Both the position numbers and the translations under genes were made by a program. The notes beneath the pieces are model-generated. The model did no database searches. It was not told the origin of the DNA and saw nothing but the letters and a program-made list of their open reading frames with translations. A stretch of 64,000 nucleotides of DNA from Pseudovirgaria hyperparasitica. Lineage: Eukaryota. The stretch lies in NCBI GenBank assembly GCA_010093815.1, contig ML996583.1; one strand, 5' to 3'. Shown here in pieces: positions 5,421-40,177 of the stretch (within the stretch, counting starts at the first letter, position 1; each line of letters begins with the position of its first letter).

Positions 5421-6821
5421 TCAAGGGGATACGAAATCGACATCGTCCTGGTCTTCATGATCCGCGGCAAGAATGAAAGGATGCTGGAGCGCCTCATCTG
5501 CCGTTATCCTCTTCTGTGGATCACAATCCAACAGACGCTCCAGAAATCGAATGGCCTCTACTTCTTCTGGGTCGAGCGTTTCTATTCGCTTCCCATTTGC
5601 ATCTTTCTTCGTCCGTTCTGTGCACCACAATATAATCTTCTCGAAACCATATCCATTCTCACTATACGACGGAATGTTCGTCTCAAAGACTTGGCCATGC
5701 ATGATGGCCGCCTCACGTATTCGCTTGCGCCCGAAGACATTTGTCAGCTCGAGCAACGCATCAATGTCATCTGCACTGTGAAAGAATGGGAAGCGTTTGG
5801 CAAGGAGCGTGAGCAGCACTACTCCAACACTCCACATATCGATCGCACAGGTTTGCATTGTACACTTTAAAAGTACCTCAGGGGCCCGAAAACCTCTTGT
5901 TCCAGCCCGATTCGCACGCCGACTCGGTCGTGAATCATTTTTGGGATAACTCGGCTGTTGCTTAGTCCCTTGCGCGGCAGCTTCTTGTTGGTTCGCTGCA
6001 TATATGCTCGTGCGTTGCTTCATCATTCTTTCGTTTGGAGAAAAGGCGCATAGGCAAGTATGCCAATCCGTTCCTTCCCGCTCTGCGAGGCCGAAGTCGA
6101 CCAACACACCACGTGCATGTTCAGGCGAATATAGAAAGTTGGTTGGCTTGATGTCGCGATGGAGAATAGAATGACGATGTACAGAGCTGAGAGCGGTTAT
6201 CAAGCTTTGGAAGTATAGGCGCATATCGTGAATGGACATCTCGCGGAAGTAATCCCGAAAGTCACGGTGCTGGAAGTACGGGAGAATAGCAATGACTTGA
6301 TCTTTATCGCGGAAAGCAGTGATTAGGGGGCACACTGAAGGGCATTTCCTCAAATCGTGTAACAACTCGAGCTCATTGAGGATCCGTATCGGCGAGCTCG
6401 TCGCATAGATCTTCTTTATGGCAACATAATGGGCTCTGCGTCTGGGCTGTCGTTTCTCTTTCCTTCGATTTGGGGTCAAGTACCGGTTATTTTCCTTCTC
6501 TTCGATATCCCAGTCATTTTCGAAGTGGTCGTACAGTAGATCCTCTGCTTTGTATACTGTCGAGAATGTCCCTTCGCCGATTCGATTAATGAGTCTGTAC
6601 TGCTTCGTGATACCCTCGAAGCTGGCTGCAAATCGATCAATGTCTTCCTGAACCAGCTCATCGACCTCTTCCTCATCACTGCCATCGATTGTACATCCAC
6701 TTTCCTGCAGTGGATCCTGACTCTCCTCCATATCGTAATCCGACCCTTCCTCGGACTCATCGTGGAGTACCACCTCTTGCTGCAAATTCCTCGCCATTCG
6801 CGCCTTTACCATTGTATTCAT
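5421..6821 (-). CDS. CDC7: Cdc7/Hsk1 (DDK) Ser/Thr kinase
   Basis: IGEGTFSTVYKAED, VAIKKIYATSSPIRILNELELL, HRDIKPTNFL, DFGLAE, RRANRAGTRGFRAPEVL are Cdc7-specific. Confidence 0.95.
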   Translation of the reverse strand: MNTMVKARMARNLQQEVVLHDESEEGSDYDMEESQDPLQESGCTIDGSDEEEVDELVQEDIDRFAASFEGITKQYRLINRIGEGTFSTVYKAEDLLYDHFENDWDIEEKENNRYLTPNRRKEKRQPRRRAHYVAIKKIYATSSPIRILNELELLHDLRKCPSVCPLITAFRDKDQVIAILPYFQHRDFRDYFREMSIHDMRLYFQSLITALSSVHRHSILHRDIKPTNFLYSPEHARGVLVDFGLAEREGTDWHTCLCAFSPNERMMKQRTSIYAANQQEAAAQGTKQQPSYPKNDSRPSRRANRAGTRGFRAPEVLLKCTMQTCAIDMWSVGVVLLTLLAKRFPFFHSADDIDALLELTNVFGRKRIREAAIMHGQVFETNIPSYSENGYGFEKIILWCTERTKKDANGKRIETLDPEEVEAIRFLERLLDCDPQKRITADEALQHPFILAADHEDQDDVDFVSP

Positions 6822-7106: not shown

Positions 7107-7249
7107 CGTGGTTGTGCCGAGGTACCTCCGGCGCATAACAATTGTCAACAAACATAGAACGATACCAATCGACAAAGAAGTTCAGACTTACTACGAACTG
7201 TCGACCTCTTCATGGGCAAGCCAGTCGTGGACTGGTTCCAAGATTCAAT

Positions 7250-10200
7250 ATGGCCGACCATGTTGACTTCAACATCTCTGACGTCCTGCGACAATACCAG
7301 ACCGACCCGGCCTCCGTAAACACCCCCGAAGCCCCATCCGAATTAATTGATTGCGAAAACGACCCGGACTCGTTAACTCCTGCAATCGTGAACGGAGCTC
7401 TCAATCCAGTAATAGATGCTATTGCCGAGAATCCTGAAGCAATAACTCGTGCGGCGAATTTTGATACTTTACAATTTCTACTCAAGTGTGTACCAACCAC
7501 TGCTCCAGGATGTACGAATTATATACATGAACCTAACGAAGAACTTTTTCGCAAATCTAGAATCGCCTTGCAAATCCCTCCGACTTCTCTGTCCAAGATC
7601 CTTGACATATTAGTATCTGCTCTGTCTTCGGAGACAGATGCTGCTCACGCTGATTTAGAAGCCGACGAAAGTGATACGGTCCCTCATCATAAACAGTTAC
7701 TTGAAATATATGGATTCTTGCTGCAATGGACGCTTTCTGCAGTTGAGACAAAGGCTGCGGAGAAGTCCGCAGCTGCTCCCCCAGCAAAGGGAAAAGGAGG
7801 GAAGGGTCCGAAGACCAAAGGCGCCAACAGAGATGGTAGTTGGGATTCGACCGCTCAGTTACAAACTGCGTTGGATGTTATGAGTAAGGTGCTGAAGTTG
7901 AAACTTGCAAAGATATTTCACACTACTTCAGAACGTGATACATTCGTTGGTCTGTTTACGAGGCCCGTCTACCTCGTCCTCGAGAGTGAAACAAGAATAA
8001 AGATCAAAGAAACTCGGATGCATGCATTCAGAGTGCTCTGTATCGCGATAAAGCATCATGGTCATGGTTTCGGTAAGACTGACACTTCTTCGTACTCAGG
8101 AGACCTACTAATTTTCAGGCGCTCAAACATCGATCATCCAGAATCTATCGTACTTCGAGCATCTTTCGGAGCCAATGGCAGAATTTTTACATATTCTATA
8201 TGAGCAATACGACTACCCACAACTTGCAGAAGACATTCTTCGGTAAGAGTCCGTCGTATGCGGGTGGTGGTTATGCTAATAAGATACAGAGAATTAAGCG
8301 GCAAGGAATTCAATAGCAATGATCTCAAGGGCCCTAAATCTGTGTCGACGTTCATTACAAAGATCTCTGAACTGGCTCCCCGGCTTGTCATTAAGCAGAT
8401 GACCTTGCTTGCAAAGTTCTTAGACAGTGAAGTACATTTCAAAGATCAAATCATAACGCTGTAACCTGTCTGACATGGCTACAGTCCTACACACTCCGCT
8501 GTGCGATCATTGAAGTATGCGGCAACCTCATCATCATGCTTACAAAACAAGAAGGTTCAGAGCGCAGCGAGCATACAGAAGGACAAATCAATGCATTCTT
8601 CGATGTCCTCGAGGAACGGTTTCTGGATGTAAGCCCTTATTGTAGATGTCGTGCCATTCAAGTGTACACAAAATTGTGTGATATGCTCCCGTTTGGTCTA
8701 TACACGGATCGACGCCAGAATGCTGCTGAATTGGCGGCCCGGAGTCTTGAAGACAAGACCAGCAACGCAAGGAGAAATGCCATAAAACTACTAAGCAAGT
8801 TAATCGAGACCCATCATTTCCGGGCCTTGAAGAATGTAGACGATGGTACCCTCTCACGGCACGGAGACCAACGAAAACCTGGATTTGAGACCAGACTGAG
8901 AAGTATAGAGGCGCAGATAGATGCGTTACGACCTCCTGTAGAGCTTCAGGAAAAATCCTCGGACGTGGATCCCACCCTAAACGCAAGCATGCTGCAAGAC
9001 GCGACCCAAATGGAAGGCATTGAACAACAACCCGAACCAATGACGGCAGAGCAGTTAGCAGCGGCAGCGAAGAAAGCCGAGGAGGAGAAGGAGACCGCAG
9101 AAAAGCTGGAGAATCTCCAAAATTTTAGACGGTATCATCTCGACGCGATAAAGTTTATCGTGGTTGTCGAGGAGGCTTCCGCCACTGTCACTCAATTACT
9201 CTCTTCTAAAAACAAGAGCGAAGTGATCGAAGCCATGGACTTTTTCCAGATTCTAGATGCCTACAAGATCGAAACCGCGAGTGTGGGCATCCGGCGTATG
9301 CTTCGGCTCATTTGGACCAAGGGTAGTAGTGACGAAGGCAAGGGCGTACAAGGACATTTGATCGATGTCTATAAGCATCTCTTCTTCGATGCTCCAGACA
9401 GTTACGATCCCGAGCATGCTGCACTCTTTGTTGCCAACAACATGACAAGTCTCACGTTCGGATCGACTCCTGCCGATCTTACATCCCTAGAACAACTCCT
9501 AAGCACCATGATGAAGGCAGGTTTGATCTCTAGTGCTGTTGTTGACAAACTTTGGCAAATATATAGCGTCTCAAAGAACATCTCCAAGACCCAGCGTCGT
9601 GGTGCCATCATTATCCTTGGCATGCTCGCAGTGGCCGACCCTGATATCATTGTCAAAGAAATGGAGAGATGCTTGAAGGTAGGCCTAGGGGCTTTGGGAC
9701 GTCAAGATCTCGGCCTGGCCAGGTACACATGTGTTGCTCTTCGCAGAATCAACAACCAGGCTCGCAAGTCCGACAAACCCACAGTTGGTTCAAACGCTCC
9801 CCATTTCGCCAAGCTATCGAACGACCATGCAATCTTGATCTGCCTAGCAGCTATGACAGAGATCGTTTCCGACGATAAAGAATGGTTTGGCTTAGCAGAA
9901 CAGGCGATCGGTGCCATCTATGCTCTATCCAAATTTCCAGATGTACTTTGTTCCAACATCATTCGGAGGAAAACGAGATATGTATTTCAGTCCAAAGCTA
10001 CTTCCAGACCTATGTCCCGAGATTCTGATACCGCCATGGATGTCGACGAGCCAGAGACCGCCATGCCTGTTCCACGCGAAGAAGAGAAAGAAGACATAGC
10101 TGAAGAGAAACAGAAGCCTGCAATGGCACTATCTCAATTATTGTTCATTGTTGGGCACGTCGCAATCAAGCAGATCGTCCACCTTGAGCAATGCGAACTA

Positions 10201-11257
10201 GATTTCAAAAAGCGCAAAGCAGAGAAAGAGAAGGCCGCCGAAGCTGCAAAATCTGAGCGACAATCCCTCGCAGCTGTAAATCAATCTCCTAAGAAGAGGA
10301 AACCTGGCGCAAAGAATACTGCTACACCACCCCCAGTCGCTCAGGAAGATAAGGATGAGCTCGACCTGATTGGAAGCACAACAGAGGATGATTTCACCGA
10401 TGCTATTGCCCACATCCGTGAGAGAGAGTTACTGTACGGCGATAAATCCCTTCTCGCAAGGTTTGGCCCCATGGTCGCGGACATATGTGCGAATAATACT
10501 TCATATGCCGACGCTGAGCTCCAGGCCCAAGCCGCTCTGTGTCTTGCAAAGCTCATGTGTGTGAGCAGCCAATACTGCGAGCAGCACCTAGACCTTCTTC
10601 TTACGATCTTAGAGCGTAGCAAGGACGCCACAGTGCGTAGTAACCTCGTTGTAGCGCTTGGTGACATGGCTGTCTGTTTCAACCACCACATCGACGAGAA
10701 TACCGACTTCCTGTACCGTCGCCTCAATGATCCTGATGGCAGTGTGAAGCGTACTTGTCTTATGACTCTAACGTTCTTAATCCTGGCCGGTCAGGTCAAG
10801 GTCAAGGGTCAGCTAGGTGAAATTGCGAAATGTCTCGAGGACGAAGACCGCCGCATCGCCGACATGAGCCGTATGTTTTTCACCGAATTCGCGACGAAAG
10901 ATAATGCTGTGTACAACAATTTCGTCGATGTGTTCAGTCTGCTCAGCTCCGATAGCAGACTAGACGAAGATGCTTTTAAGAAGATCATGAAATTTATCAC
11001 AGGTTTCATCGAGAAGGTATGTCGTGCATCACGCCGCGCTCCAGAAAATATTCGTCGACACAACATCCACTGACATCCTGACGCAGGACAAACACGCCAA
11101 ACAACTCGCTAATAAGCTGGCTTCTCGTTTACCTCGCTGTGAGACAGAGCGACAATGGAATGACGTTACGTATGCTTTAGGCTTGCTACCACACAAAGAC
11201 GAGGAGATTGGCAAGATTGTGACAGAGGGCTTCAAGGTTGTCCAAAGCGCCGCGTAA
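7250..11257 (+). CDS. CND1: Condensin complex subunit 1 (Cnd1/Ycs4/CAP-D2), multi-exon
   Basis: HEAT-repeat protein with Cnd1 C-terminal domain (VRSNLVVALGDMAVCFNHHIDENTDFLYRRLND...LILAGQVKVKGQLGEIAKCLED); several introns (e.g. 7486-7560, about 8072-8118, 8242-8289, 8432-8484, 11017-11086). Confidence 0.93.
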
Positions 11258-11695
11258 TGATAGCATGGGTACTATGACTGATATGAGCGTTGATCGGAGC
11301 GTTTGAAGCGTTTGGAGTTGGAGGATTTTTCATCAGTGCGGTCTCAGAGGATATGCTCTCATTGCCGGCAGCCATGGTTTGTGTTTTATGACAGCATCAA
11401 GTGGTGTTTTGTGTTTTTGTTCGCTGTTTCGCTCACTTGTTTTGGTATACGCGAGGGAGCTTCCTCCAACGCATATGCATTCACTGTCAATGTTCGAATA
11501 GAGATTCTGTCAATTCATCATGGCCCTATAATGGTGGCTTACACAATAACCACATACAGACGCCATCAGTCATTAATCGTTAATCCCAGCCTAGTTCCAT
11601 GGTCCTTATGTACATGAAGCCTCTTTCTGCTTCAAATTTGACGTAGCGGTACCACGCCGTCGTACAAAACCAATGCTCCCAGATGCACTTCTAGA

Positions 11696-12101
11696 TTAAA
11701 CATTGATCGACATCTGCTGGTCCTCCTCATACACCGGCATGTATTCGAGACTCTGTGTAGAAACGCTCTGGAGGACCTTGTCCGAAGTCAGTGCTGAGAA
11801 TCCCCTAAAGTCACACGTTAGCTTCAAGTCCCGTTTGCAGAGAGCGGGTACGATAACTTACTTGATGATGCGGTACTCGTGAGTGATGCGGCCACCCTAG
11901 GTTCGGATCAGTTTACTAGCCATGCGGAGGTCCAAGACGACTTACAGCTTCGACGATCGCGTCTTTGGCTTGCTGCATGATGTGACCGGGGGTGTTGTCC
12001 GGGAATGTGACGATGACGGTCTTAAGGCTGACAGGCTTGGCAAGAGCTTGCGCATAAGCGCAGAATAGCGCGACGAGGAGTGTGAAGAGGGAGAATTTCA
12101 T
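11696..12101 (-). CDS. Small secreted protein, peptidase inhibitor I9/propeptide-like, 3 exons
   Basis: Signal peptide MKFSLFTLLVALFCAYAQALA; spliced VIVTFPDNTP...AKDAIVEAGGRITHEYRIIKGFSA...YEEDQQMSINV matches the I9 fold pattern. Confidence 0.75.
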
Positions 12102-12831
12102 GGTGTCGGGTGTGTCAGTATTTCTGTGGAATGTATGGAGGTGTAGGTTTGTAGGTGCGTAGGTGTGGGAGCGTTATCTATTAAAGAAAAGGCTCATTAG
12201 CACCTTCCTGAGACAGAGCCATGAGTGGGAACTCCCTTGGGTAGTATGTCATCGAGCTTATTCAGTCCTTAGTCATTCAGCTGTGACTGGACTCGGACGG
12301 GATGTTGTGGTCCAAGCCAGCGCTTGTTCTTCCAGGAACATTTTCTGTTGATAACATTCTACACTGAGAGGTAATTCTCATTTTTGGACTGGAAACTTGT
12401 TATGTTCAGCTGAGGAATAACCCAAAATTGTCGCCTCATCATTGATTTACACCGTCCATATCCGTACATCTCTTCACGCCCCTTTTACGTGCGCCGATGC
12501 TGGCTACAGGTTTTGAGCTCATTACAGCCTGTGTTGCGCACTTACGCCTGTCCTGCTACTGTATTCTCTTATCTCTGGACTCTTGTTTAGCTTAGCATTA
12601 GACTGAGAGCCTGATACGGCCTACGCGTGAATTCCTTCAACTGGAGACTCTGGCCTGTGCCTAAGGATCTACAGCATCTGGTATGTTGTTCATCTTTCTT
12701 ATGAGTAAACAACACTTCAGAGGCTCATTCTCAACGAGCGTCTATAGTCCATGAACTTGAGAAAGTGTAATTCTCCTTGAGAAGTGCCTTACGCGCCAAG
12801 CGAACCAGCCTACAAATACCACACACACAAC

Positions 12832-26470: not shown

Positions 26471-27266
26471 ATGTCCATTGCAGCTACTAAACAAACAATG
26501 TCTTCGCCCAAGTACGAATACACCAGTCTGTCCGATTCTCACGACGAGATGAAGGAGGACGGTCTCATCGCTCGTCCTCATGCTTCCCATACTGGGATCA
26601 ATCGATGGGGCTTCTTCGCTGCCGGCGTGTTGTCGACGCTCGCTGCAGTCTTCGTCGTCTGGGTCGTCAGTCTACATGTTCACATCCCAGCACATAACTC
26701 TGAAGCTGATGGTACGTCAATGCCTTACAAAATACAAGCAAATATACATCTATTCCCCCCAATAAAATCGATCTATCTACTGCTACACAACTGAGCCAGT
26801 TTATGCCAAACTAACGAACACATCAGCTCTCCTCCTCCTCCGCAAACCACACTTCATGACACACGCCACTGAGTCCATCTACGCCGTGCCACAATCCGTG
26901 CAGTCCGACGAGGACTGGCGTCTGCTCTTCCCACTGCGCGGTGCCCGCTTCACGAGCGAGGACGAGGCTCGCCCGTTTACGCTGTCTGTCTTCCACCAGC
27001 TGCATTGTCTGGCCAGTATCCGGCGCGTGTACTTTGACCTGCAGACGGGCGAGGGCAGTGCTATTGATGCGTCGACACATGGGCATATCCGGCACTGTAT
27101 TGACTTTCTGCGGCAGGTGGTGATGTGTAATGCGGATCGCACCAAGGAGATTTATGGGACGGATAGCTTTGAGGCGCAGCATATGTGTTACGATTGGGAT
27201 GAGGTTCTGGAGAGTACGGAGCCGTGGACGTTGGCTCTTGAGGACAAGGATGAGGATGAGGAATAG
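26471..27266 (+). CDS. DUF3328/UstYa-like oxidase 1 (about 226 aa; exons 26471-26711, 26827-27266)
   Basis: N-terminal TM helix (WGFFAAGVLSTLAAVFVVWVV); SVFHQLHCL and HIRHCIDFLRQVVMCNAD = two HxxHC motifs; C-terminal HMCYDWD. Confidence 0.92.
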
Positions 27267-27412: not shown

Positions 27413-28390
27413 TTACAAAGTCGGATTCTTCAACACACTCATCTCCTCCGCTGAGATCTGCCTGTCTGCCGTTGATGCCATCAGCGCATCCCAATCCACA
27501 CAGCGCTCCAGGATGCGCGTGCCGTTGACCATAGGCTTCGTGCTTTTATCCCAATACATAGTGATCAGGTCTGAGACGTCAGGGTGGCACATAAGAACAG
27601 CCCTGAGCCGATCCATGCAATGGTCTGCTCCAGTCAGCTGAACAGTTTCCTGCTGGATGCCTCTTCTACATGGCCAAAAGATGGACATATCTTTTTTTAA
27701 AAAAAAAAACCAGAAAGGAACAGTGCAAAACTTACCAACATGCTCAGAAATGTACTTCACCTCATACTCGGTAGCATTGGGATAGTAGTAATCGCGGTCC
27801 TTCCACATACGCGCAAAATTCAGACAGTGCAGCTCATGAAACACGCCCAGCCAGGCAAGATAGCCACTGTCGCCGCTACCAGCATCATCAGTATCTCCGT
27901 CGCCGCCCATGGCAACGCTCGTGCGGCCATTGCGTGCCAGTTCGGCTGCGGTGACGCGGATGCGTTTGCGGTCCAGTAGCGAGTCCCACTGTGCGTCCAT
28001 GTCTGGCGTTGGCGGGCCAAAGTAGCCGCTTGTGGAGCGCAGTTCCTGTGGCGTGGATGCGTACTGGATGTCGAGGCTGGGGATGGCGAGGAGGGCTGTC
28101 TGGCCGGGTGCTGGGTAGTCTGCGGCGTGTGAGTGGAAGGGGAAGAAGGAGGCATTCGTGTAGATGTAGAGCCAGGCGAAGAAGGTGTAGCAAAAGATGA
28201 GGAGTGTGTGTATGATTACAGAGCGTGTGAGATGGGGCATTTTGGATTTTAGAGGGGTTGTGTGGGTGCGTTGGAGCCATGGAGTTGTGTCGTCGATGTC
28301 GTTGTCATCGTCGTCATTGATGGTGGTGCTGTTTATGTCGGTGTCGAAGGAGGTGGTGGATTTGAGGAGGTGGGCGTGTTCGATGGCCAT
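27413..28390 (-). CDS. DUF3328/UstYa-like oxidase 2 (about 288 aa; intron 27625-27735)
   Basis: TM helix (SVIIHTLLIFCYTFFAWLYIY), YFGPPTPDMDAQWDSLL, GYLAWLGVFHELHCL; after splicing EHVDHCMDRLRAVLMCHPD; CVDWD. Confidence 0.92.
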   Translation of the reverse strand: MAIEHAHLLKSTTSFDTDINSTTINDDDDNDIDDTTPWLQRTHTTPLKSKMPHLTRSVIIHTLLIFCYTFFAWLYIYTNASFFPFHSHAADYPAPGQTALLAIPSLDIQYASTPQELRSTSGYFGPPTPDMDAQWDSLLDRKRIRVTAAELARNGRTSVAMGGDGDTDDAGSGDSGYLAWLGVFHELHCLNFARMWKDRDYYYPNATEYEVKYISEHVGKFCTVPFWFFFLKKDMSIFWPCRRGIQQETVQLTGADHCMDRLRAVLMCHPDVSDLITMYWDKSTKPMVNGTRILERCVDWDALMASTADRQISAEEMSVLKNPTL

Positions 28391-29089
28391 GGTGTTTTGT
28401 TGGTGTGAGGTAGACTTTGATGTGCGATGGTAGGCAGTGGGAATGACTGTGGTATCGCGATTACAAGGACCACACGTCTGGAGTGTATCTTCAGTCTTGT
28501 GGATGTGGAAGCTTGCTCAGTATTCTGAGAGGCTGTAGTAGAAGGAAGGGGGACTAATCATTGACGAGGCGCATGGACCATATCCAAGCTCACGAAGAAG
28601 TGCAAGTGTATGGCTCGCCTACAGCATTTGAGGGGTTCCTGCCGTTCACGGGTGTATTACCGTTGTTTCCATATTGCCATGATGCAGAAACTAAAACTAG
28701 TCCCCAAGCCAGGGTCCCCAGTCACACTTTCATCCCGTCACGCCATGCTCCTGTCCATGCGAGGTATTCCTCGCCGATGTCAGCCTTTCCAAACGACTTT
28801 TCACCAATGATTTTTCATCCCTTCACGTCGACTTCGTTTACGGGTGCACTGTCATATCGGGCCAGAGCGGTATATCCCGTCTGTTGTGTTCGTGCATGGG
28901 CCTCGCAAAGGTACACCCCCCTTGAGGGATACCACTTCTTACGCGGGCCCAAACGTGTCATTTCAGCGCGACCCAATGGATTATTGTGAACCCTTATTGA
29001 ACTAGGTGTTCTTGATACGAGGTACTCTTCAATTGTCGTCCTAGGATAGACAGGAAGTCATGCCAAGCAGGCTGTTGGATGCAGACGCC

Positions 29090-29168
29090 GATGCTAGATG
29101 CTAGATGCTAGATGCCAGCTGCTCAGATGCTAGATGATGGATGCTGGGTCCTGGATCCCAGATGCTAA
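29090..29168. repeat. GATGCTA 7-mer tandem repeat (about 4 contiguous copies plus degenerate copies)
   Basis: gatgcta-gatgcta-gatgcta-gatgc at 29090-29115, further gatgct(a) copies to about 29168. Confidence 0.8.
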
Positions 29169-30633
29169 TGCAGGTGATCTACAGGTCCAGTGAGCAATCT
29201 GAGATCTTCATGTCAAGGTTGCATGCAGGTGATGTTCCTCCAAGGTTCGGTTCTTAGATAAGGTAAGGTTGGTATTTGAGTGCTTAGGTAATTCTAGTGT
29301 GAAGCTTTGCGTAGCGCTAGGACGCTTACGGGACTAGCGCCATCGGCCCGTTCTAGGTAGACATATCGGCGACTCAACGTCGCGGCCAGAGAAGCTGTCT
29401 TCATGTTACTTTCTACATAGTGTATCTGTCGTAAGAGACATCGTATTGACGAGTGTTCTTACACATACATCAGATCATCACCGCTCCTTGCGTCAACTCT
29501 TTTGCCTTCTTCCCAAGACGCCACCAGTCACCACCACCAGCTTCACTACCGCATCCGTACACCCTTGAGGGGTCAAGATAGTTCCTTGGAAGGCTGTGAC
29601 TCCCTTAGATCCACGAGTGTTTACGATCTTCTATTGCTCCCCCTCCCTTGGTAGCAGTATCAAAGGTAATCTGAGTCTGGGCACATCCGTCTGGTCCACA
29701 TTCATTCTCCATTCCAAGATCAGTGGTAACCACAGCGTTCTACTGGCTCGGGACCATTCCACTAGAACAGTGAGAGCAAGGCCGGAACGCCCTTCGTAGC
29801 TGGCTTTACATGGTGTTCCTGCCGCGTATGGCGCCAAGTAGTGTGGTCAAGGACGGTCACGATGGATGTACCAGAAGCTCCGTCGGCAGCGTTATTGACC
29901 CGATTCCTGCGCCCGCTATCAAAAATCTGACTCTATCTCATTGGCGTAATGCTGATAATAGTCTGGTGCTGCTCATGCAATGCATCCGGTAGGCTTTTCT
30001 ATGCGCTGCGTCCGGCTTGTTATGCTCTGATCCCGTCTGCTTGGTCCGCTTCACATCAAGACCACATATGATTGTTCAATAATTGCACCCAATGCTACTT
30101 CCATATTCCACATGAGCACAAGCCACTTCCCTCTCGGGAACTCGTCATGGGCACGTATTCGCCGGGCTCTTATCTTTTCACCCACATTCCACGCTAGCCC
30201 GACTTCCTTCATGTTTTTTGAGCGTGCTCGTTCTGCCTCCATCTTCCGATCACGTTGCGTGCGCTCTCAAACTCTTCACCTCTGGTTTACTATCCTGTTG
30301 TACGGCACAGCTTTTAGTCAGTCAGCTCTTCGTGTACGTTGGGCTCTCAACTCTGGATCCCAACCATCCATGCCATATCGGTAAAAGGAGATTCTATAAG
30401 CCTTCCCCTTCCAGACGACCAGACTCGCCACCCAGAAAACGCTTTGTTCACCGTACACCCCATTCGCCAAGCATCTCAAATACTATAAACGTCGCTCTCA
30501 CGTCCATATTTAAAATTTTCTTCCACTGCTTCTCTGTCCCAAAACCCTCGACTTACCATCCAGTCCTCACGCTTTCAAAGTACAATACCTATCAATCTCC
30601 ATTCAAGAACCAGCCAACCACTTTGATCTCAAC

Positions 30634-31372
30634 ATGCAGTTCATCACCACTGTTGCCCTTATGGCTGTTATAGCTACCGGTACTGTTGCTGCCCCTACGA
30701 AGCTTCACGTTGGTGAGTAGATCCCAATTTTCCTTGCTGCATATATACATACCAGCTTTCCACATACTAACAACTACCCAGCGCACCTCGTCTCAAAGAC
30801 TGTCGCTGATGATGATGTGGTCTATCCTGAGTACAAGCGCGGTGACACTGGTAAGCCTTTGAGCATACAGTAATTTTCCAGATAGAGCTTGCTAACGGTT
30901 TTTAGTGTCACGCAACTTGGTTGATGACGACGTAGTCTATCCTGACTATAAGCGTGGTTTGGTTGACGACGATGTTGTCTACCCTGACTACAAACGTGAC
31001 CTGGTCGACGACGATGTTGTCTACCCTGACTACAAACGTGACCTGGTCGACGACGATGTTGTCTACCCTGACTACAAACGTGACCTGGTCGATGATGACG
31101 TTGTGTATCCCGACTACAAGCGCGATCTGGTTGATGATGATGTGGTCTACCCTGACTACAAGCGCGGTCTGGTTGATGATGATGTGGTCTACCCTGACTA
31201 CAAGCGCGGTCTCGTCGATGACGATGTCGTATATCCTGACTACAAGCGCGACCTGGTTGACGACGACGTTGTTTACCCCGACTACAAGCGTGACCTGGTC
31301 GATGATGACGTTGTCTATCCCGACTACAAGCGTGACCTGGTCGATGATGACGTTGTCTATCCCGATTATTAG
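30634..31372 (+). CDS. Kex2-processed repeat protein (KEP), putative dikaritin RiPP precursor, 204 aa; exons 30634-30712, 30782-30850, 30906-31372
   Basis: Spliced: MQFITTVALMAVIATGTVAAPTKLHVAHLVSKTVADDDVVYPEYKRGDTVSR followed by 11 x (N/G/D)LVDDDVVYPDY separated by KR; signal peptide ending VAA-P; introns GTGAGT..TACTAAC..CAG and GTAAGC..GCTAAC..TAG keep frame. Confidence 0.93.
30914..31372 (+). repeat. Coding 42-bp tandem repeat x11 (precursor repeat units)
   Basis: Directly visible 42-nt periodicity; units 3 and 4 are identical at nucleotide level. Confidence 0.97.
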
Positions 31373-32284
31373 GCGTAAAAGTCATTCTCCCTTATCATTC
31401 TGACGGATTTTCCTTCATATATGGGCACGTCTCTTGATGTAAACATGGAGCTGTTGGTGCAAGAGTGTAACACTTCTTCTCCATGTTAAGAGCTGGAACA
31501 GCTATGGAATACTTTGATTGCAAGTTGCTGAGGGTCCTTTGATGGCTTAGTGTTATCATGGTCTTATAGTATCATTGACATATCAGATACATCATATCTT
31601 CATCTACCCATGTGACTACCGCATCTATTCGCCTGAACTCATTACCAATGACATACGCCATAGCTTCTTCCCACATCCATCGAACATTCAGAATCATCAT
31701 CAGTCCAGTTCTCAGCCAACCTCGTATTGCACCCAACATTCTTCACAGCCCCTCCTCTCGGAATATAAGCCACTCATCAGCAACCATAACAAACATCCAA
31801 GTCCAGAAGCGACCATCCTGCCGCAAGAAGCAACCACAGTTACCAAACTGCCTAGCTAAGCGCCGTGTATAATTTGAAATCCTCCGTGCCGCGAGCGCCG
31901 CCCAGTAGCTACTTGTTGATAACAAATTCTGTATAAGCGCCCTATAAGCGCTAAAAGTCGCGGGAAATACCCGCTGTTTGGGGGGGGGCTGTCCGGGTCC
32001 CGTCGGACATGTCAGGAGATATGTCTGACTTGGGACCGGAGCGATGTCTATAGCGTGGCATGGTATTACATTGCATGGCATGGCATGGAATGGAGGCTGA
32101 TGCGGGGGAGGACCCACAGGGCTGTGTGTGTTTGTATGTGTGTGTGTGTGCTATGGCTTGCAGGTAGGAGGTCTAGGCAGACGGACAGACAAACGAACTA
32201 TTCACTGATGGACCGTGTCTTGACGTTGGAGGAGGATGGTTTTGATTGGGGGGATTTTCCGAGGGGGGGACGGAAGGGTGTTGG

Positions 32285-32285
<1 letters not shown>

Positions 32286-32327
<42 letters not shown>
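32286..32327. repeat. (TG)21 microsatellite
   Basis: Perfect TG run. Confidence 0.95.
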
Positions 32328-32328
<1 letters not shown>

Positions 32329-32385
32329 TGATTTGAGTTTTTTGGTGAACGGGGTCGGATGGAGATGGACGGACGATGGACGATG

Positions 32386-32510
32386 GATGATGATGATGAT
32401 GATAATGATGATGATAATGATGATGATAATGATGATGATAATGATGATGATAATGATGATGATAATGATGATGATAATGATGATGATAATGATGATGATG
32501 ATGATGATGA
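32386..32510. repeat. (GAT)n / (GATGATGATAAT)x8 compound microsatellite
   Basis: GAT run with eight regularly spaced AAT interruptions. Confidence 0.95.
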
Positions 32511-33557
32511 AGGGGGGTGAGATCTTGGGCTTGGGGCTGTTGTGGTCGTTTGTGTGGGAGGGTGGTGGTGGTGTTGGTGTTTGTGTCGATGTTGTTGGTC
32601 GGATGAGGAGGTGGAGGAAGAGTAAAGTGATTTTTGGCTCTCTCTTGTGTAGTGCATGCATGCAGTGTGTAATTCCGGATTCGGGCAGGCGTCTATTGCG
32701 CTTCGCTCGCTTGGAGTGGGGAAAGTGATGTCGATGAGGAGGTACGTGGAGGTTGAAATGGGCCAATCACTTCAGACTACGCGTGTATCAGTCGTTGACA
32801 CGACACGATCAATTGTTGCCCTGGAAATAGCAAGTAATTTATGTATCAAGGGATACTCCGCCCTGTGTACCAATGTTATTGTCAGGTGATCTCCCAGGAA
32901 CGCAATAGATTCATGTTCTGAAACGCCCTCCGCAATCGTTATATGCTTCAAGGTCAAACCCTCCAGTTTCTCTGCATGGTGTTACAAGGATTCTCTGGCT
33001 GGAAGAATACAGGGCTGGTAGTTCGTACCACGTACATGTGGATCTCTGGATCATGACAGAGATGGTGCTGTGCCGTGGACGCGGCTCAACCATGCCGCTG
33101 GTAACTTCCTAGCATGGTCCTGTTGTTTAGGCTATTTTTTGGCGTTTACGTTACGCCTCCCGTGTCTAAACCTGTGCCGCGCGCCTAACTATATGCGAAG
33201 TTAGACTTCCGTCGGGGGACGTTGAAATACGAATCCGGGGGCGTATGGATAAGCCTCCGAGTGTCTGAGCCCATGTACTGTGACGGCTCTAGAGGTCACA
33301 AATCTAGACCCGGCCGAGACGGTCACGCTACAGTTTCTCTGAATACCGATGGATTGGATCGTGATGTATTGAATCGAAGACTTGATATGAAGTAGCAGAT
33401 ACATCGGGAGAAAGAGGTCCGTCGGTAGATCCACCACTCTAGTGCGGCGGCTAGCAACCCTATGTACCGCTGCAGACGTTGCGCCAACAGCGCCAACAAG
33501 CGCTCTAACGCTTTGCTATACGGAACATCGGGAACGTAGATGGTCCCGGAGCCGATA

Positions 33558-34701
33558 CTACTTCAAGTAGCGGTAGCATAGCGGACCACTATCTGTGTGC
33601 AAGATGTCACGGATACGCGTCTTAGGCCCAAGCTTATCAAGTTCCAGCTCGTCGTCGACCATAGTCCCAAAGATGGTTTCGGCACGGTGTTCTGGGTCCG
33701 CGAGCTGCCATTCTGCCCAGAGACGGTCGACCTGGCAGTGATGGAAGTAGAAGATTGGGTCTAGGAGAGATCAGTTACGATGTTCGTGTTCAAGAGAGTA
33801 ATTGGGCCATATACCGTTTGGAGAAGTGAATTCGAAGAATTCCCCCTGAATCCAGCGTGGGATGGCTTCATGTGCTGCAAACTCTAGTGTATTCCAGAAA
33901 TCGTAGTAGTCGTCCTTTTGCATGATGTCGTCGAGTTTCTCTGGTTGCAACTCTGCGCTGTACCTGTCAGACTTCTCGCCAGTCAGAAATCCTCGTGACA
34001 GACAGTGATGGGTTTCATTTGCACCGAAGCGAAGCGCCTGGTAGTGAGAGAATGGTCCTGTTTCGACACATCTTCCGTGACCCACAGACTCTTCACCTGT
34101 CCCATTGCCACCTATCCCATAAACATTGTCCCATACAGGAGCTTGATCGAGTGCTTCCCAGTCGAGAACCCAATTCCAGTATGGGATGGTGCCTTTAAAC
34201 CCACAGTGCGTCCGCAAGTCGTTCTCGAAATTGTGGAGCAGATAACGATGCCATGGCAGAAAAAGTGTTGTATCATGACCTATATCGAGTTTGTCAGAAA
34301 GTGTTCCATGATCTTTTCGAATACTTACCAATCTTGCCTGCATGGCTGTGCAAGTTTGCGTAGTCGCCGTACAGTGACTGATCGTCACGATAAAGTCCTG
34401 GAGTGGTCTGAAGGCACTTGATGGCGTCGATATACTCCAACTGTTCATCTTTGCGCAGATTACGCCATTCTCGGCGGAATTGGATCTTAGAACATCCTCC
34501 AGGCTCGCCGATATGCGTCGTCAGCGATTCAGAGTCTTCCTCAAATAGGCTGCGAGGAGAGAAAGTGAAGGCAAGCAGCAGATAGAAAATGAGGCAGGTC
34601 AAGCCTGTGGCAGATGCATACAAGAAGCGATTTGCAGTGAAGATCGACTTCTTTTGAGCAGCTTCAACTTCATAATCGAGGTCGGTCTTGAGTTCAGCCA
34701 T
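33558..34701 (-). CDS. Tyrosinase-like type-3 copper protein (UstQ/PhomQ-like), about 346 aa; introns 34280-34328, 33761-33814
   Basis: N-terminal TM anchor, C..RREWRNL..EQLEYIDAIKCL, CuA H..GHDTTLFLPWHR, IPYWNW, HCLSR, AAHEAIP, SPNDPIFYFHHCQVDRLW, LCYRY. Confidence 0.9.
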
Positions 34702-35787: not shown

Positions 35788-37288
35788 ATGACTTCACCAG
35801 ATCCTTCCCTAGTTTCGGAGCTTACTGTAAAGGTCGCAAATCAGGCAGCCCGATATGCGGACTTTTTGAAATCTGGAGAGAACGACCAAGCTCCAGTCGT
35901 TGCTAAACAGCTCTCTGAAACCCGACTCGAGCTTCTTGGTTCCACTCGAGACCTTCACAATATCGTGCAAGGACCATTTGACTATGTTCGGGACGAACTG
36001 GCTGGCGTATGTTAAGACAAAACATCAAGTTGTGCTACTTCCTATTCTGATATTCCTAGCATTGCAACCTGATCTATCTTCATGCTGTGTACAAGTTCAA
36101 TCTGCATAAAGTCGTGCCTCTCGATGGAGACATCTCCTATCAAGAACTGGCACGCATATGCAAAGTCGAAGAAGACAAGCTTCGTCGGATTATCCGCTTC
36201 GCCATTACAAGACGCTTCTTCCAGGAGAAACGTGAGGGCTATGTCAGCCACACTGCGGAATCGAAAGTTATCATAAGCAAACCAGAAATGTTCGATTACG
36301 TCGGCACAATCTGTGAAGAGATGTGGCCTTCTGCCATACAGGTACAGCAAATCTGATATCCTGTTTGTCTGCCCGCAAATTTTGACTAACTCTCGAACTT
36401 ATAGGCTGTACCCGCTATGATCAAGTGGCCTGGGTCCGAAGAGCGAAAGCATTCGGCAGGTGATGTTGTACCCCTACCTTGTAATTTTACTAACACATAT
36501 AGGGCTCTGCTCTTGCCAATGGTAGTGAGCTTGCTATGTTTGACATACTCAAAGATCACCCTGAACGGGCGGCAAGATTCTCGCGCTTCATGAACATGTT
36601 CAGCTCGGCTCCGTTCTTTCGTTTCGATTTCCTCTGTGACGCGTATGACTGGAGCAATGTGACTAAGATGGTTGATGTCGGTGGAGGACACGGTGGACAA
36701 GCTATTGCACTCGCCCAGAAATTTACATCTCTACACTGCGTCGTCCAAGATCTTGCAGTCATTGACACCGAAAACGAAGCCTCAGAGAGAATTCCTGTTG
36801 AACTCCGGAGCAGGGTCGAGTTTCAGGGCCACAACTTCTTTTCGGAACAGCCTATCAAGGATGCAGATGTCTATCACTTCCGCTGGATTTTCCACGACTG
36901 GTCAGACAAGGATTGTGTAGCGATTCTCCGGGCTCTTATTCCAGCTCTTAAACCCGGCGCGAAGGTCATCATATCCGAAGGCGTCATTCCACGGCCTGGA
37001 ACAGTATCTCGCTACGTAGAAGGGACCATGAGGTGAGTTCCCTGAGGTCCCTGATTTCCCGTGCTACACGAAAATGAGTGCCGCACAAGTTTGTCATGCC
37101 ATGCGAATGCTAACATTCATGTTAGAGTTATGGATCTTGTGATGATGGAACTAAATAACGGCAAAGAACGAGATATGATTCAATGGAAGAATCTGTTTGA
37201 GACTGCCGACGAACGCTTCAGTCTTGAGGCTGTCAAGAAAGTAGAGGGATCCAGATTGTCATACATCATATACAACTGGACTGGCTAG
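35788..37288 (+). CDS. SAM-dependent O-methyltransferase (Methyltransf_2 family), about 414 aa, 5 exons
   Basis: Dimerisation region (LRRIIRFAI..FFQE..GYVSHTAES), VDVGGGHG SAM motif, HNFFSEQPIKDADVYHFRWIFHDWSD, NGKER. Confidence 0.92.
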
Positions 37289-37999
37289 ACGAATGCCATG
37301 ATACGATTCATGGACTAATCGATTCATCGCGTGAAAGGTTGCTAGAAGAGCTTGTGTATGGGCATAGAGTGTTAACCATGAGCTGCATGATAGCTGTTTC
37401 GAACATTGTAGTACGATGGCGTTGTACACGAGGAATACAAAAAATTTCACAAAACCCACGACGAATATCCTCGAAGACTGATGCCACTAATGAAGGATAT
37501 CGAACAATGTGTCATGGTTATCAGAATATTGACGTCTGGAAATCCTGACGGTAGGCTGGAGACGCGCCAAGACCACCTAGCCGGTCGGCCCCCAAATCAA
37601 CTCCATCACAGCTGAACAAAGGCAGAAGAAGCGGTTGTCTGCCTCTATTTACATTGGGAAGACCAATTTCTAATTTGATAGCCGTTGGTTTACAGACATG
37701 TTTTCAAGCAAAGACTTAAAGTCTCGATTTGATCGAGTCTCGGCAAAAACGCTCTCCGTTGGCGCTAGACAGTACCTAAGGAGTGTCAGTGAATATAAAG
37801 TAAGTACATCTAACACGTCCGACCTGGGATGTGTATGGAGCCGAGCCTCGTTATTGGCTCATGTTAAAGACCTCATCTTCATGCTGTCGCTCCGATTTGC
37901 ACGCCCCGCTTCCGCTTTTTCCACTACTTTGAAATTTACAACCAATGTCCTGGATTTGAAGTCTAGAAAGTCAGGATTCTGCGTTTATTATCTGACATA

Positions 38000-40177
38000 T
38001 TGCAGACTAAAGATCTCGCGGCGTTCACATACAGTCCACTTACTGGGCCGAGATGCATCCGGCTATTGCACATACAGGCCGGAGGAGACACTGATGCATT
38101 AACATGTGATGTCTCTGAGGTTGACCTGGATGCTGAACCAATTTTTGAAGCTTTATCGTACACGTGGGACCAGGATCACGCGTGGGATAACGAACCAGAA
38201 CCAGAATCAGAACGAAAGAGAAAGCCTATTCTATGTAACGGCCAATCTTGTGAGGTCACCATGAACTTGTATCATGCTCTCACAGAGTTTCGACGACGGA
38301 AGATGTACTCCCCTATCTGGATTGATCAGATTTGTATAAACCAAAAAGATGACCAAGAAAAGAATCTTCAGCTCGGCCTAATGGCTGAAATCTACAGGTC
38401 GGCGGTCCGAGTTATAGTCTGGCTCGGAATTATGTCTAAGACGAGAAATTCTGCGTTGGACTTCCTATTGGCTCTGCCTCCATTACCTGAGATAGACCAG
38501 TTACGTCGATCAAAATCCGTGCCAATGGTAGCTGAAGAAACAGATATGTCAGCCCCTTCTCAGCTGCCAGCACGCCCTAAAATGAGCAAGATTAGCCGCT
38601 CGTTTGATGTGATCAATACAGTTTCCAATGTACTCAGTGAGCAATACCACTGGCTCGGAGTTCTGCGTCTGTTGCGACGAAGCTGGTTCAACCGGACGTG
38701 GACTCTGCAGGAACTACTTCTCGCGCAAGACCTGCTGATAATGATGGGAGATCGTGATATACCCCCAGCAGTTCTTGCTGACGCTTCGAAGAGAGTCGTG
38801 GACTTCTACGCGAACGATCCCCTGATGTTCTCGGAGGGAGTGGGCCGAGATATCATCGATCGCCACCGCTACATGGACAGGATTCCAGCTTTTTTCAAGG
38901 CTAAAGAAGACTTTAAGCAAGGAAAGCGGTTTACCGCTGAGGACTACCTTTCCACCATCAGAGTACGCGGTGTTACGAACCCAAGAGATAAGGTCATCGC
39001 CGGTAAGGCAATTCTGGAGCACGATGTTGTGCCGGTAGCGGATTTTGATGCCCCTACCGCCAATATATTTATCAACTTTGCACATGTCCTTTATGAAGAT
39101 ACTGGAGTCTTTTCACTTTCGTTGGTTGGCGATACAGCTCCTGCAATAGCAGGCCTCCCCTCATGGGTTCCAGATCTGGTCCGCCCGTTGAGGCCGACAC
39201 CTTTGAAATATTGTGGCTGCTCAAGTTTCGATTCTCCGATTCCTGTACAGGGCAATGACATTAGGTTCGAAGACAAGACAATACATTTACGAGGCGCGAA
39301 ATGGGATGTGGTACGGGACATCGGTGAGACCAGTTGGAGCTGGGAATATTCTCTGTGGTATTTCATTCCTTACGACAAGCCGCCTGTGCCAATGCGAACA
39401 TGCTGGACTGATAACAAGGAACGATTCGGAGATATCTTCCCAGTACTAGAGCAGATGGGACCCATCTACAAGCCTACCGGAGAGCGGACAGCCGATGCAT
39501 TCTGGAAGACGCTGATCGGCAATATCCAATCGCAAAGTGCCAACGATGATGAGGCGTGGGGAGAGAGCTTCCGATTATACCTTTCATTCTCGCTCTGGCA
39601 GATCCGTCAGCTCGCTCAGCACAAGGACAATCCCATCATCAAGCTAGTAGACGGTTCTGATAAATGGCTGCCAAGCATAGTGACCGATGCGATCGAGGCG
39701 CTGGAGCACCGTCTCGCGCTCTACATGGCTCTAGACGAAGTCCAACACGACGAGACAAACACACCAAGGACATCGCTGCGCCAAACAATCCTCGACTTCG
39801 CACGCCGGATCTTCGGTACCGAGAATCTCAGCGAACTCAGCGCGTGGAAGGGCTACAAGGCCGAGACGAGCTCTGCCCTGCACGACAAAGGCCTGTATGA
39901 ACAAGTCCAGCTCTTCGGCAATGCCTTCACCCAGGTCTACGACGGACGAAGGATTCTGGTCTCGGAGAAGGGGTACATGGGCATCGCGCCAGAGTCCGTC
40001 AAGGTGGGAGATGTCATCTTCCTGGTTGCTGGGGCTGGGACGCCGTATGTCTTCAGACCCGTCAAAGACGTCGAGAACACATACACCCTGGTCGGCGAGG
40101 CCTATCTCCACGGCCTAACTCCCGACATCGTGTCTGCAGAGGGCGAGTGGAAAGTAGAAAGCATTACAGTGATATAA
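38000..40177 (+). CDS. HET-domain (HET-6-like) heterokaryon incompatibility protein; start uncertain
   Basis: IRLLHI, FEALSYTW, IWIDQICINQ..EKNLQLGLMAEIY..AVRVIVWLG, WFNRTWTLQE, LPSWVPD, C-terminal GYMGIAP..GD..PYVFRP..LVGEAYLHG. Confidence 0.88.
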   Translation: MQTKDLAAFTYSPLTGPRCIRLLHIQAGGDTDALTCDVSEVDLDAEPIFEALSYTWDQDHAWDNEPEPESERKRKPILCNGQSCEVTMNLYHALTEFRRRKMYSPIWIDQICINQKDDQEKNLQLGLMAEIYRSAVRVIVWLGIMSKTRNSALDFLLALPPLPEIDQLRRSKSVPMVAEETDMSAPSQLPARPKMSKISRSFDVINTVSNVLSEQYHWLGVLRLLRRSWFNRTWTLQELLLAQDLLIMMGDRDIPPAVLADASKRVVDFYANDPLMFSEGVGRDIIDRHRYMDRIPAFFKAKEDFKQGKRFTAEDYLSTIRVRGVTNPRDKVIAGKAILEHDVVPVADFDAPTANIFINFAHVLYEDTGVFSLSLVGDTAPAIAGLPSWVPDLVRPLRPTPLKYCGCSSFDSPIPVQGNDIRFEDKTIHLRGAKWDVVRDIGETSWSWEYSLWYFIPYDKPPVPMRTCWTDNKERFGDIFPVLEQMGPIYKPTGERTADAFWKTLIGNIQSQSANDDEAWGESFRLYLSFSLWQIRQLAQHKDNPIIKLVDGSDKWLPSIVTDAIEALEHRLALYMALDEVQHDETNTPRTSLRQTILDFARRIFGTENLSELSAWKGYKAETSSALHDKGLYEQVQLFGNAFTQVYDGRRILVSEKGYMGIAPESVKVGDVIFLVAGAGTPYVFRPVKDVENTYTLVGEAYLHGLTPDIVSAEGEWKVESITVI

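Follow-up and report, generated by a model that had tools for sequence, protein, structure and literature searches.

A transcribed three-exon gene for a probable dikaritin-type RiPP precursor and its enzyme neighbours in Pseudovirgaria hyperparasitica

We analysed a 64,000-nt stretch of contig ML996583.1 (hereafter the window) from the rust parasite Pseudovirgaria hyperparasitica (Dothideomycetes, Acrospermales), in which positions 30634-31372 hold a real three-exon fungal gene, laid out as follows.

30484..30633, + strand: 5' untranslated part, covered by the spliced contig from run X1
30634..30712, + strand: exon 1, with the start codon, signal-peptide-like residues 1-20 and the start of the pro-region; ends in phase 1
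30713..30781, + strand: intron 1, 69 nt, GTGAGT..CTAAC..CAG, branch A 11 nt from the 3' end
30782..30850, + strand: exon 2, with pro-region and the first, variant core copy (DDDVVYPEY-KR)
30851..30905, + strand: intron 2, 55 nt, GTAAGC..CTAAC..TAG, branch A 10 nt from the 3' end
30906..31372, + strand: exon 3, with 11 core copies x-L-V-DDDVVYPDY separated by KR; TAG directly after the last copy

The three exons join into one frame of 615 nt (79 + 69 + 467), which starts with the ATG at 30634, encodes 204 aa and ends with TAG at 31370-31372. Read unspliced, the frame from this ATG meets a stop at codon 29, and the long repeat frame (30896-31372) lacks a start codon. No ATG occurs in 30484-30633, so that 30634 is the first start codon of the spliced molecule; its context is CTCAACATGC, with A at -3. 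An earlier note on this DNA had proposed both introns, a 204-residue product and an additional twelfth repeat, and all of these were borne out: the introns have GT..AG ends and CTAAC, join the exons in frame and are both skipped by a contig of run X1, the arithmetic and coordinates are right, and the additional repeat lies in exon 2 as a D-to-E variant. A Pfam scan of the exon 3 product gave no family.

Public records list no RNA run for 30450-31520, and the sole run holding the stretch is X1, a public run of unrecorded kind. It yielded one 387-nt contig that is 100% identical to the window (0 differences) and is placed on 30484-30711, 30781-30849 and 30905-30990, so that exactly 69 and 55 nt are missing from it, each gap bounded by GT..AG. 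In both introns and upstream of 30469 the depth was zero, with the exons and 5' leader covered, which is the pattern of cDNA rather than of genomic DNA. The support consists of this one contig (word depth 5.9) from one study, in a comparison that covered 30450-30990, and it establishes the existence of the spliced form but says nothing about its abundance. Starting as it does at 30484, the contig cannot show the true transcript start. A TATAAA hexamer (30484-30489) begins at the first base of the contig; it was rejected as a promoter TATA box on account of this coincidence, and the transcript probably starts further upstream, or its start has nothing to do with the hexamer.

The spliced protein contains DDDVVYP(D/E)Y 12 times: exon 2 encodes a single copy, the one with Glu, and exon 3 the other 11. 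There are 11 Lys-Arg sites at a spacing of 14 residues, and the stop codon comes directly after the last Tyr of the final copy. The protein has the tandem repeats and Kex2 sites of the Kex2-processed repeat proteins, a precursor type defined by a signal peptide plus Kex2-separated repeats (PMC7329392; SignalP was part of the original definition). Predicted Kex2 fragments are 26, 20 and 14 residues long, the 14-residue form occurring nine times, with a final fragment of 12 residues. At the DNA level, TRF reported an array at 30918-31359 with a period of 42, 10.5 copies and 88% matches. Exon 3 holds 10 complete units of 42 nt, which differ from one another in 16 columns; 13 of these are at third codon positions and 13 fall in codons whose residue is constant, while at the protein level the unit varies only in its first codon (N/G/D). 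This shows that the repeats are constrained at the peptide level while their DNA drifts.

The possibility that the spliced form is not a functional mRNA, and represents either transcriptional noise or a DNA-level intronless copy in run X1, gains something from the unrecorded kind of the run and from joints supported by one contig, but we consider it extremely unlikely. X1 covers what a cDNA would cover and neither introns nor upstream DNA, GT..AG is exact at both joints, which re-establish a single long frame, the peptide-level constraint on the repeats is strong, and the same gene plan recurs in two metagenome loci (L001 and L002, described below).

Exon 1 supplies a hydrophobic N-terminus. 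Mean hydropathy is +1.99 over residues 3-20 versus -0.82 for the rest of the protein, the segment reads ..AAPTK at its end, and small residues occupy -3 and -1 for cuts after either A19 or A20. Its n-region lacks a basic residue, and a cut after A20 would place Pro at +1. On the basis of hydropathy, the -3/-1 rule and likeness to the N-termini of related proteins, one of which carries the name 'Secreted protein', the segment appears signal-peptide-like. Thus the N-terminal hydrophobic segment that had been proposed to be gained by splicing is present, and its role as a signal peptide is suggested by these same three features.

Within 6 kb of the precursor lie two UstYa/DUF3328 genes, a gene for a membrane-anchored tyrosinase and an O-methyltransferase gene.

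26471..27266, + strand: UstYa-1 (UstYa/DUF3328), PF11807 E 4.5e-18; 226-aa model with a predicted intron at 26712-26826
27413..28390, - strand: UstYa-2 (UstYa/DUF3328), PF11807 E 2.1e-29; 288 aa; motifs HELHC and HVDHC
33561..34701, - strand: tyrosinase-like (type-3 copper) gene with at least 2 introns; N-terminal hydrophobic anchor at residues 26-44
about 36060..37036, + strand: O-methyltransferase-family gene (Methyltransf_2), PF00891 E 1.2e-25

Both UstYa proteins carry two HxxHC motifs, which in UstYa-1 are HQLHC and HIRHC and are accompanied by a hydrophobic segment at residues 48-66. After removal of a 37-codon intron, UstYa-2 is identical over 288/288 residues to P0147, which is EJ05DRAFT_170796 of Pseudovirgaria hyperparasitica. 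This intron (27625-27735, - strand, 111 nt) is in frame and stop-free, so that the whole gene reads as one ORF, and the HVDHC motif spans the exon junction and so exists only in the spliced form. Apart from its self-match, UstYa-2 is closest to a Letharia lupina protein at 42% identity, with further matches in Lobaria and Loekoesia; overall, its nearest non-self relatives come from lichen-forming fungi and Sordariomycetes at no more than 42% identity. Many UstYa homologues are named 'Tat pathway signal sequence' at source, which looks like an annotation artefact for N-terminally anchored proteins.

The tyrosinase gene, 2.2 kb from the precursor, matched PF00264 in two pieces (E 1e-20 on 33774-34520(-) and E 2.3e-9 on 33561-33770(-)), and its relatives in the PDB are catechol oxidase and tyrosinases. 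For both UstYa proteins and the tyrosinase, the best 19-residue Kyte-Doolittle means (2.40, 2.01 and 1.87) lie in N-terminal stretches, in agreement with the earlier description of TM-anchored DUF3328 and tyrosinase-like enzymes as the setting of the precursor. The nearest solved relatives of the methyltransferase are O-methyltransferases for phenols and small molecules (GedA, DnrK, LepI and caffeate OMTs).

Pfam scans of 56 of the 170 ORFs of at least 90 aa across the window and of 77 ORFs of at least 45 aa in the cluster gaps returned no peptidase or transporter domain, and in the gaps no further domain was recognised. The scanned ORFs of the cluster region likewise contained no P450, flavin monooxygenase or PLP enzyme. 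On one side the cluster is flanked by MCM4, THOC7 and elongin A and on the other by HET, GH43 and RPL44, which are housekeeping or apparently unrelated genes; the HET-domain (heterokaryon incompatibility) gene at 37967-40177 (+) immediately follows the methyltransferase. We also observed, between the tyrosinase and the precursor, a (TG)21 microsatellite (32286-32327) and a 12-nt repeat, GATGATAATGAT, present in 10.4 copies with 98% matches at 32386-32510. Several reading frames, on both strands, stay open across 32173-32771, and Pfam gave no match there. In the 2.2 kb that separate UstYa-2 from the precursor, the heptanucleotide GATGCTA is repeated 11.7 times (29078-29171).

Considering the gene, its transcript and its neighbours, we regard it as very probable that the locus is a transcribed three-exon gene for a 204-residue dikaritin-type (ustiloxin/phomopsin/asperipin) RiPP precursor. 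A Kex2-processed repeat protein could also release unmodified linear peptides of a signalling or pheromone-like kind, its neighbouring enzymes being unrelated to it: for 6120 of 7878 such proteins no DUF3328 gene lies nearby, and the type includes some pheromones (PMC7329392); the core in the window has no known product. Against this, two UstYa genes lie directly upstream of the precursor both in the window and in the distant relative L001, and the core, being acidic and rich in Tyr, fits the description of the DUF3328-associated types (PMC7329392). We consider the linear-peptide explanation highly improbable next to a dikaritin-type precursor.

We also searched for relatives of the precursor. 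An exhaustive protein search with exon 3 as query gave 145 matches at E <= 1e-3, and 16 of these, chosen for shortness or high identity, were inspected. Nine were short proteins with a [YW]PD(x)Y-dibasic repeat, two (P0048 and P0065) were doubtful and five were unrelated repeat proteins; the remaining 129, mostly long proteins at 10-35% identity, are probably repeat artefacts. VVYPDY-RR cores were found in P0018 (a hypothetical protein of Sclerotinia nivalis) and P0088 (Botrytis cinerea BCIN_03g05260, named 'Secreted protein' in UniRef), and also in a match outside these nine, P0146 (Sclerophora amabilis). P0024 has a VAWPDY-KR core, in which Trp replaces the first aromatic residue, and A(I/V)AYPD(S/A/G)Y-KR cores occur in P0006, P0015, P0019, P0035, P0125 and P0126. 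The precursor and its uncharacterised [YW]PD(x)Y relatives have in common acidic residues ahead of the core, a dibasic site behind it and similar N-termini. They differ in that the relatives have 2-7 copies rather than 12, the closest cores are followed by RR rather than KR, and a larger subgroup has an extra core residue (YPDSY, YPDAY, YPDGY) that is absent from the window core. P0024 and the metagenome precursors of L001 and L002 end right after Tyr, like the window precursor.

Other searches were less productive. A word-index protein search with exon 3 scored 7999 candidates, none at E <= 1e-3; Asp-rich words had probably overwhelmed it, given that relatives of suitable length did emerge from the exhaustive search. 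Neither search returned the precursor itself (the exhaustive one lists 50%-cluster representatives), and the ESM Atlas gave no usable match to it. A literature search on the locus tags of the Botrytis and Sclerotinia relatives found nothing. A putative cluster with paired DUF3328 genes and a tyrosinase has been described on chromosome 3 of Sclerotinia sclerotiorum (PMC6941272), and its connection to the Botrytis relative is only a lead.

Supporting the gene model, an alignment of the first 66 residues with 10 relatives showed that in eight of them a hydrophobic N-terminus closes with a small residue followed by Pro (..CAPTK, ..AAPTN and ..AAPTG are examples; the window protein has ..AAPTK), P0006 and P0015 among these eight having been trimmed to an internal Met. 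P0125 and P0019 lack the pattern. Since it is shared by eight of the 10, exon 1 encodes the normal N-terminus of the family.

Scanning metagenomes with exon 3 alone gave 41 pattern matches and no confirmed locus; scanning with P0035 gave at least 596 pattern matches, from which two loci, L001 and L002, were confirmed. Both have a 64-nt exon 1 (Met, a hydrophobic stretch and ..AAPVA), a predicted 71-nt GT..AG intron in phase 1, the phase of intron 1 in the window, and a second exon with seven AVAYPDSY cores and a stop directly after the last Tyr. The genes around the L001 precursor, in positions of that locus, are as follows.

5694-6689, + strand: methyltransferase
7161-8122, + strand: UstYa
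8222-9143, - strand: UstYa
9873-10312, + strand: precursor
11198-12247, - strand: methyltransferase

The UstYa pair of L001 is convergent and just upstream of the precursor, as in the window, and is inverted relative to the window pair, its genes matching UstYa-2 (35%, E 1.8e-37) and UstYa-1 (33%, E 4.6e-16) in tblastn. Its two methyltransferases are of the Methyltransf_11/25 type, other than that of the window. No tyrosinase was found within 10 kb on either side of L001 among ORFs of at least 90 aa or by tblastn with pieces of the window gene, and a tyrosinase may therefore not be needed for the [YW]PD(x)Y core family.

These findings bear on whether the precursor is acted on by the two UstYa oxidases only, in the style of asperipin-2a, with the tyrosinase and the O-methyltransferase serving another substrate or none. 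L001 keeps the UstYa pair beside a precursor with no tyrosinase match within 10 kb on either side, asperipin-2a needs a single DUF3328 protein and no tyrosinase (PMC6514808), and P0024 has Trp in place of the first aromatic residue. On the other hand, the window tyrosinase lies 2.2 kb from the precursor and has a membrane anchor like those of the UstYa proteins, a tyrosinase with two UstY proteins and a methyltransferase constitutes the ustiloxin core set (PMC6514808), and the gene set also matches the make-up of the lichen Clan R1 clusters (PMC12048977); the scan of L001, moreover, was confined to ORFs of at least 90 aa and tblastn with window pieces. Overall, we judge a UstYa-only pathway unlikely and favour a dikaritin-type precursor on which the tyrosinase probably acts as well.

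Of the known systems, the one most like the locus is the ustiloxin core set; the lichen Clan R1 clusters are similar to it as well. UstA, from which ustiloxin B is made in Aspergillus flavus and Ustilaginoidea virens, likewise has a signal-like N-terminus, tandem cores (16 in UstA and 12 in the window), acidic residues before the core and KR after it, and its gene is accompanied by a tyrosinase, two DUF3328 proteins and a methyltransferase (PMC6514808). In that pathway ustA with ustQ, ustYa and ustYb gives the cyclic core, which ustM methylates (PMC6514808). Compared by description, the window core differs from that of UstA in reading VVYP(D/E)Y rather than YAIG and in lacking Ile two residues after Tyr; it is also followed immediately by KR or, in the last copy, by the stop, and the window methyltransferase belongs to the O-methyltransferase family.

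PhomA and the phomopsin cluster, like the dikaritin definition of Ding et al. (2016), share the signal-like leader, the KR-flanked repeated cores and the presence of a tyrosinase, a methyltransferase and several DUF3328 proteins (PMC6514808, PMC12048977). Unlike the window, phomopsin has the core YVIPID, and no S41 peptidase, zinc-finger regulator or transporter was found by the window genes. AprA, the asperipin-2a precursor (core FYYTGY), is similar in its aromatic-rich core ending in Tyr, and in this system a DUF3328 oxidase makes ether links from Tyr side chains (PMC6514808). L001, with no tyrosinase match, resembles the asperipin-2a system as well. The asperipin cluster comprises a single UstY homologue with a reductase and a transporter, and lacks a tyrosinase, whereas the window has two UstYa genes, a tyrosinase and an O-methyltransferase. 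The Clan R1 clusters of Parmeliaceae have two UstY homologues, a tyrosinase and an O-methyltransferase, a likeness to the window in gene content (PMC12048977). They also carry an FGE-sulfatase gene, which was not seen in the window, and that study found in them no precursor with repeated cores, which the window does have (PMC12048977).

We compared the locus with the five dikaritin components of Ding et al., as listed in PMC12048977, and found a precursor with a leader and repeated cores, a tyrosinase and multiple DUF3328/UstYa proteins. A methyltransferase is present too, but belongs to the O-methyltransferase family, compared with an N-methyltransferase in ustiloxin and phomopsin. PMC12048977 states that methyltransferases of the O-methyltransferase family had not been reported from dikaritin clusters. 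No transporter or peptidase component was found in the scanned ORFs of the window and the cluster gaps; working dikaritin clusters can also lack these, and DUF3328 is now taken as the class-defining enzyme (PMC12048977). Among the precursor types of Umemura 2020, type G-6 is Tyr- and Asp-rich, with DUF3328 in 46 of 49 cases, and the window core family may correspond to it (PMC7329392). A full-text literature search on the core motifs of the window and its relatives, with subscription papers outside its reach, returned no relevant paper. Together, these comparisons place the precursor in the known dikaritin/KEP kind and not in a new kind of system, with a core family that is undescribed in the searched literature.

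The likely route to a product, with its signal cleavage site and Kex2 processing, can be read by analogy from published ustiloxin-type precursors (PMC7329392, PMC6514808). The N-terminus would direct the precursor into the ER and be cut off near A19/A20. The membrane-anchored UstYa pair, probably together with the tyrosinase, would then oxidatively cross-link a Tyr side chain within each core; dikaritins as a compound class have a macrocycle closed through an ether bond from such a side chain. Kex2 in the Golgi would cut after each KR, and a carboxypeptidase would remove the KR. The final copy ends at the stop after Tyr, as also in P0024, L001 and L002, and the mature C-terminus is thus most likely Tyr. 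Because the predicted Kex2 fragments of 26, 20 and 14 residues differ in their N-terminal extension, a common product would need N-terminal trimming after Kex2 cleavage, with YPDY, VVYPDY or something longer as the end point. The methyltransferase may carry out a methylation, for which a catechol oxygen produced by the tyrosinase is a plausible site.

A broader reading joins these observations, and we offer it tentatively, as possible but rather doubtful. The [YW]-P-D-(x)-Y cores that end at a dibasic site or a stop might represent an uncharacterised dikaritin subclass that is spread across several ascomycete classes and made by a conserved UstYa pair. The product of the locus described here would in that case gain an O-methyl-DOPA feature through the tyrosinase and a catechol-type O-methyltransferase, and similar small, intron-split genes might be the 'missing precursor' of lichen Clan R1. 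To our knowledge, an O-methyl-DOPA feature is not known in dikaritins.

Dikaritins include potent tubulin-binding mycotoxins (the ustiloxins and phomopsins), and we know of only a handful of dikaritin cores with a known product. The locus offers a compact candidate five-gene cluster with a transcript-supported precursor, which makes it useful for natural-product discovery. It also illustrates how such precursors escape ORF-based or automatic annotation, the putative signal peptide being encoded by an exon of 79 nt that an intron cuts off from the rest of the frame. The database models of several relatives look wrong too: P0006, for example, has what seems to be a false N-terminal extension of 113 residues, and P0019 continues into an unrelated C-terminal part of 270 residues. 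All of this bears on reports of UstY clusters 'without precursor' (PMC12048977). The 32 extra N-terminal residues of P0015 look like a similar error, and in P0035 an unusual stretch of 18 residues, possibly a retained intron, separates the signal from the first repeat.
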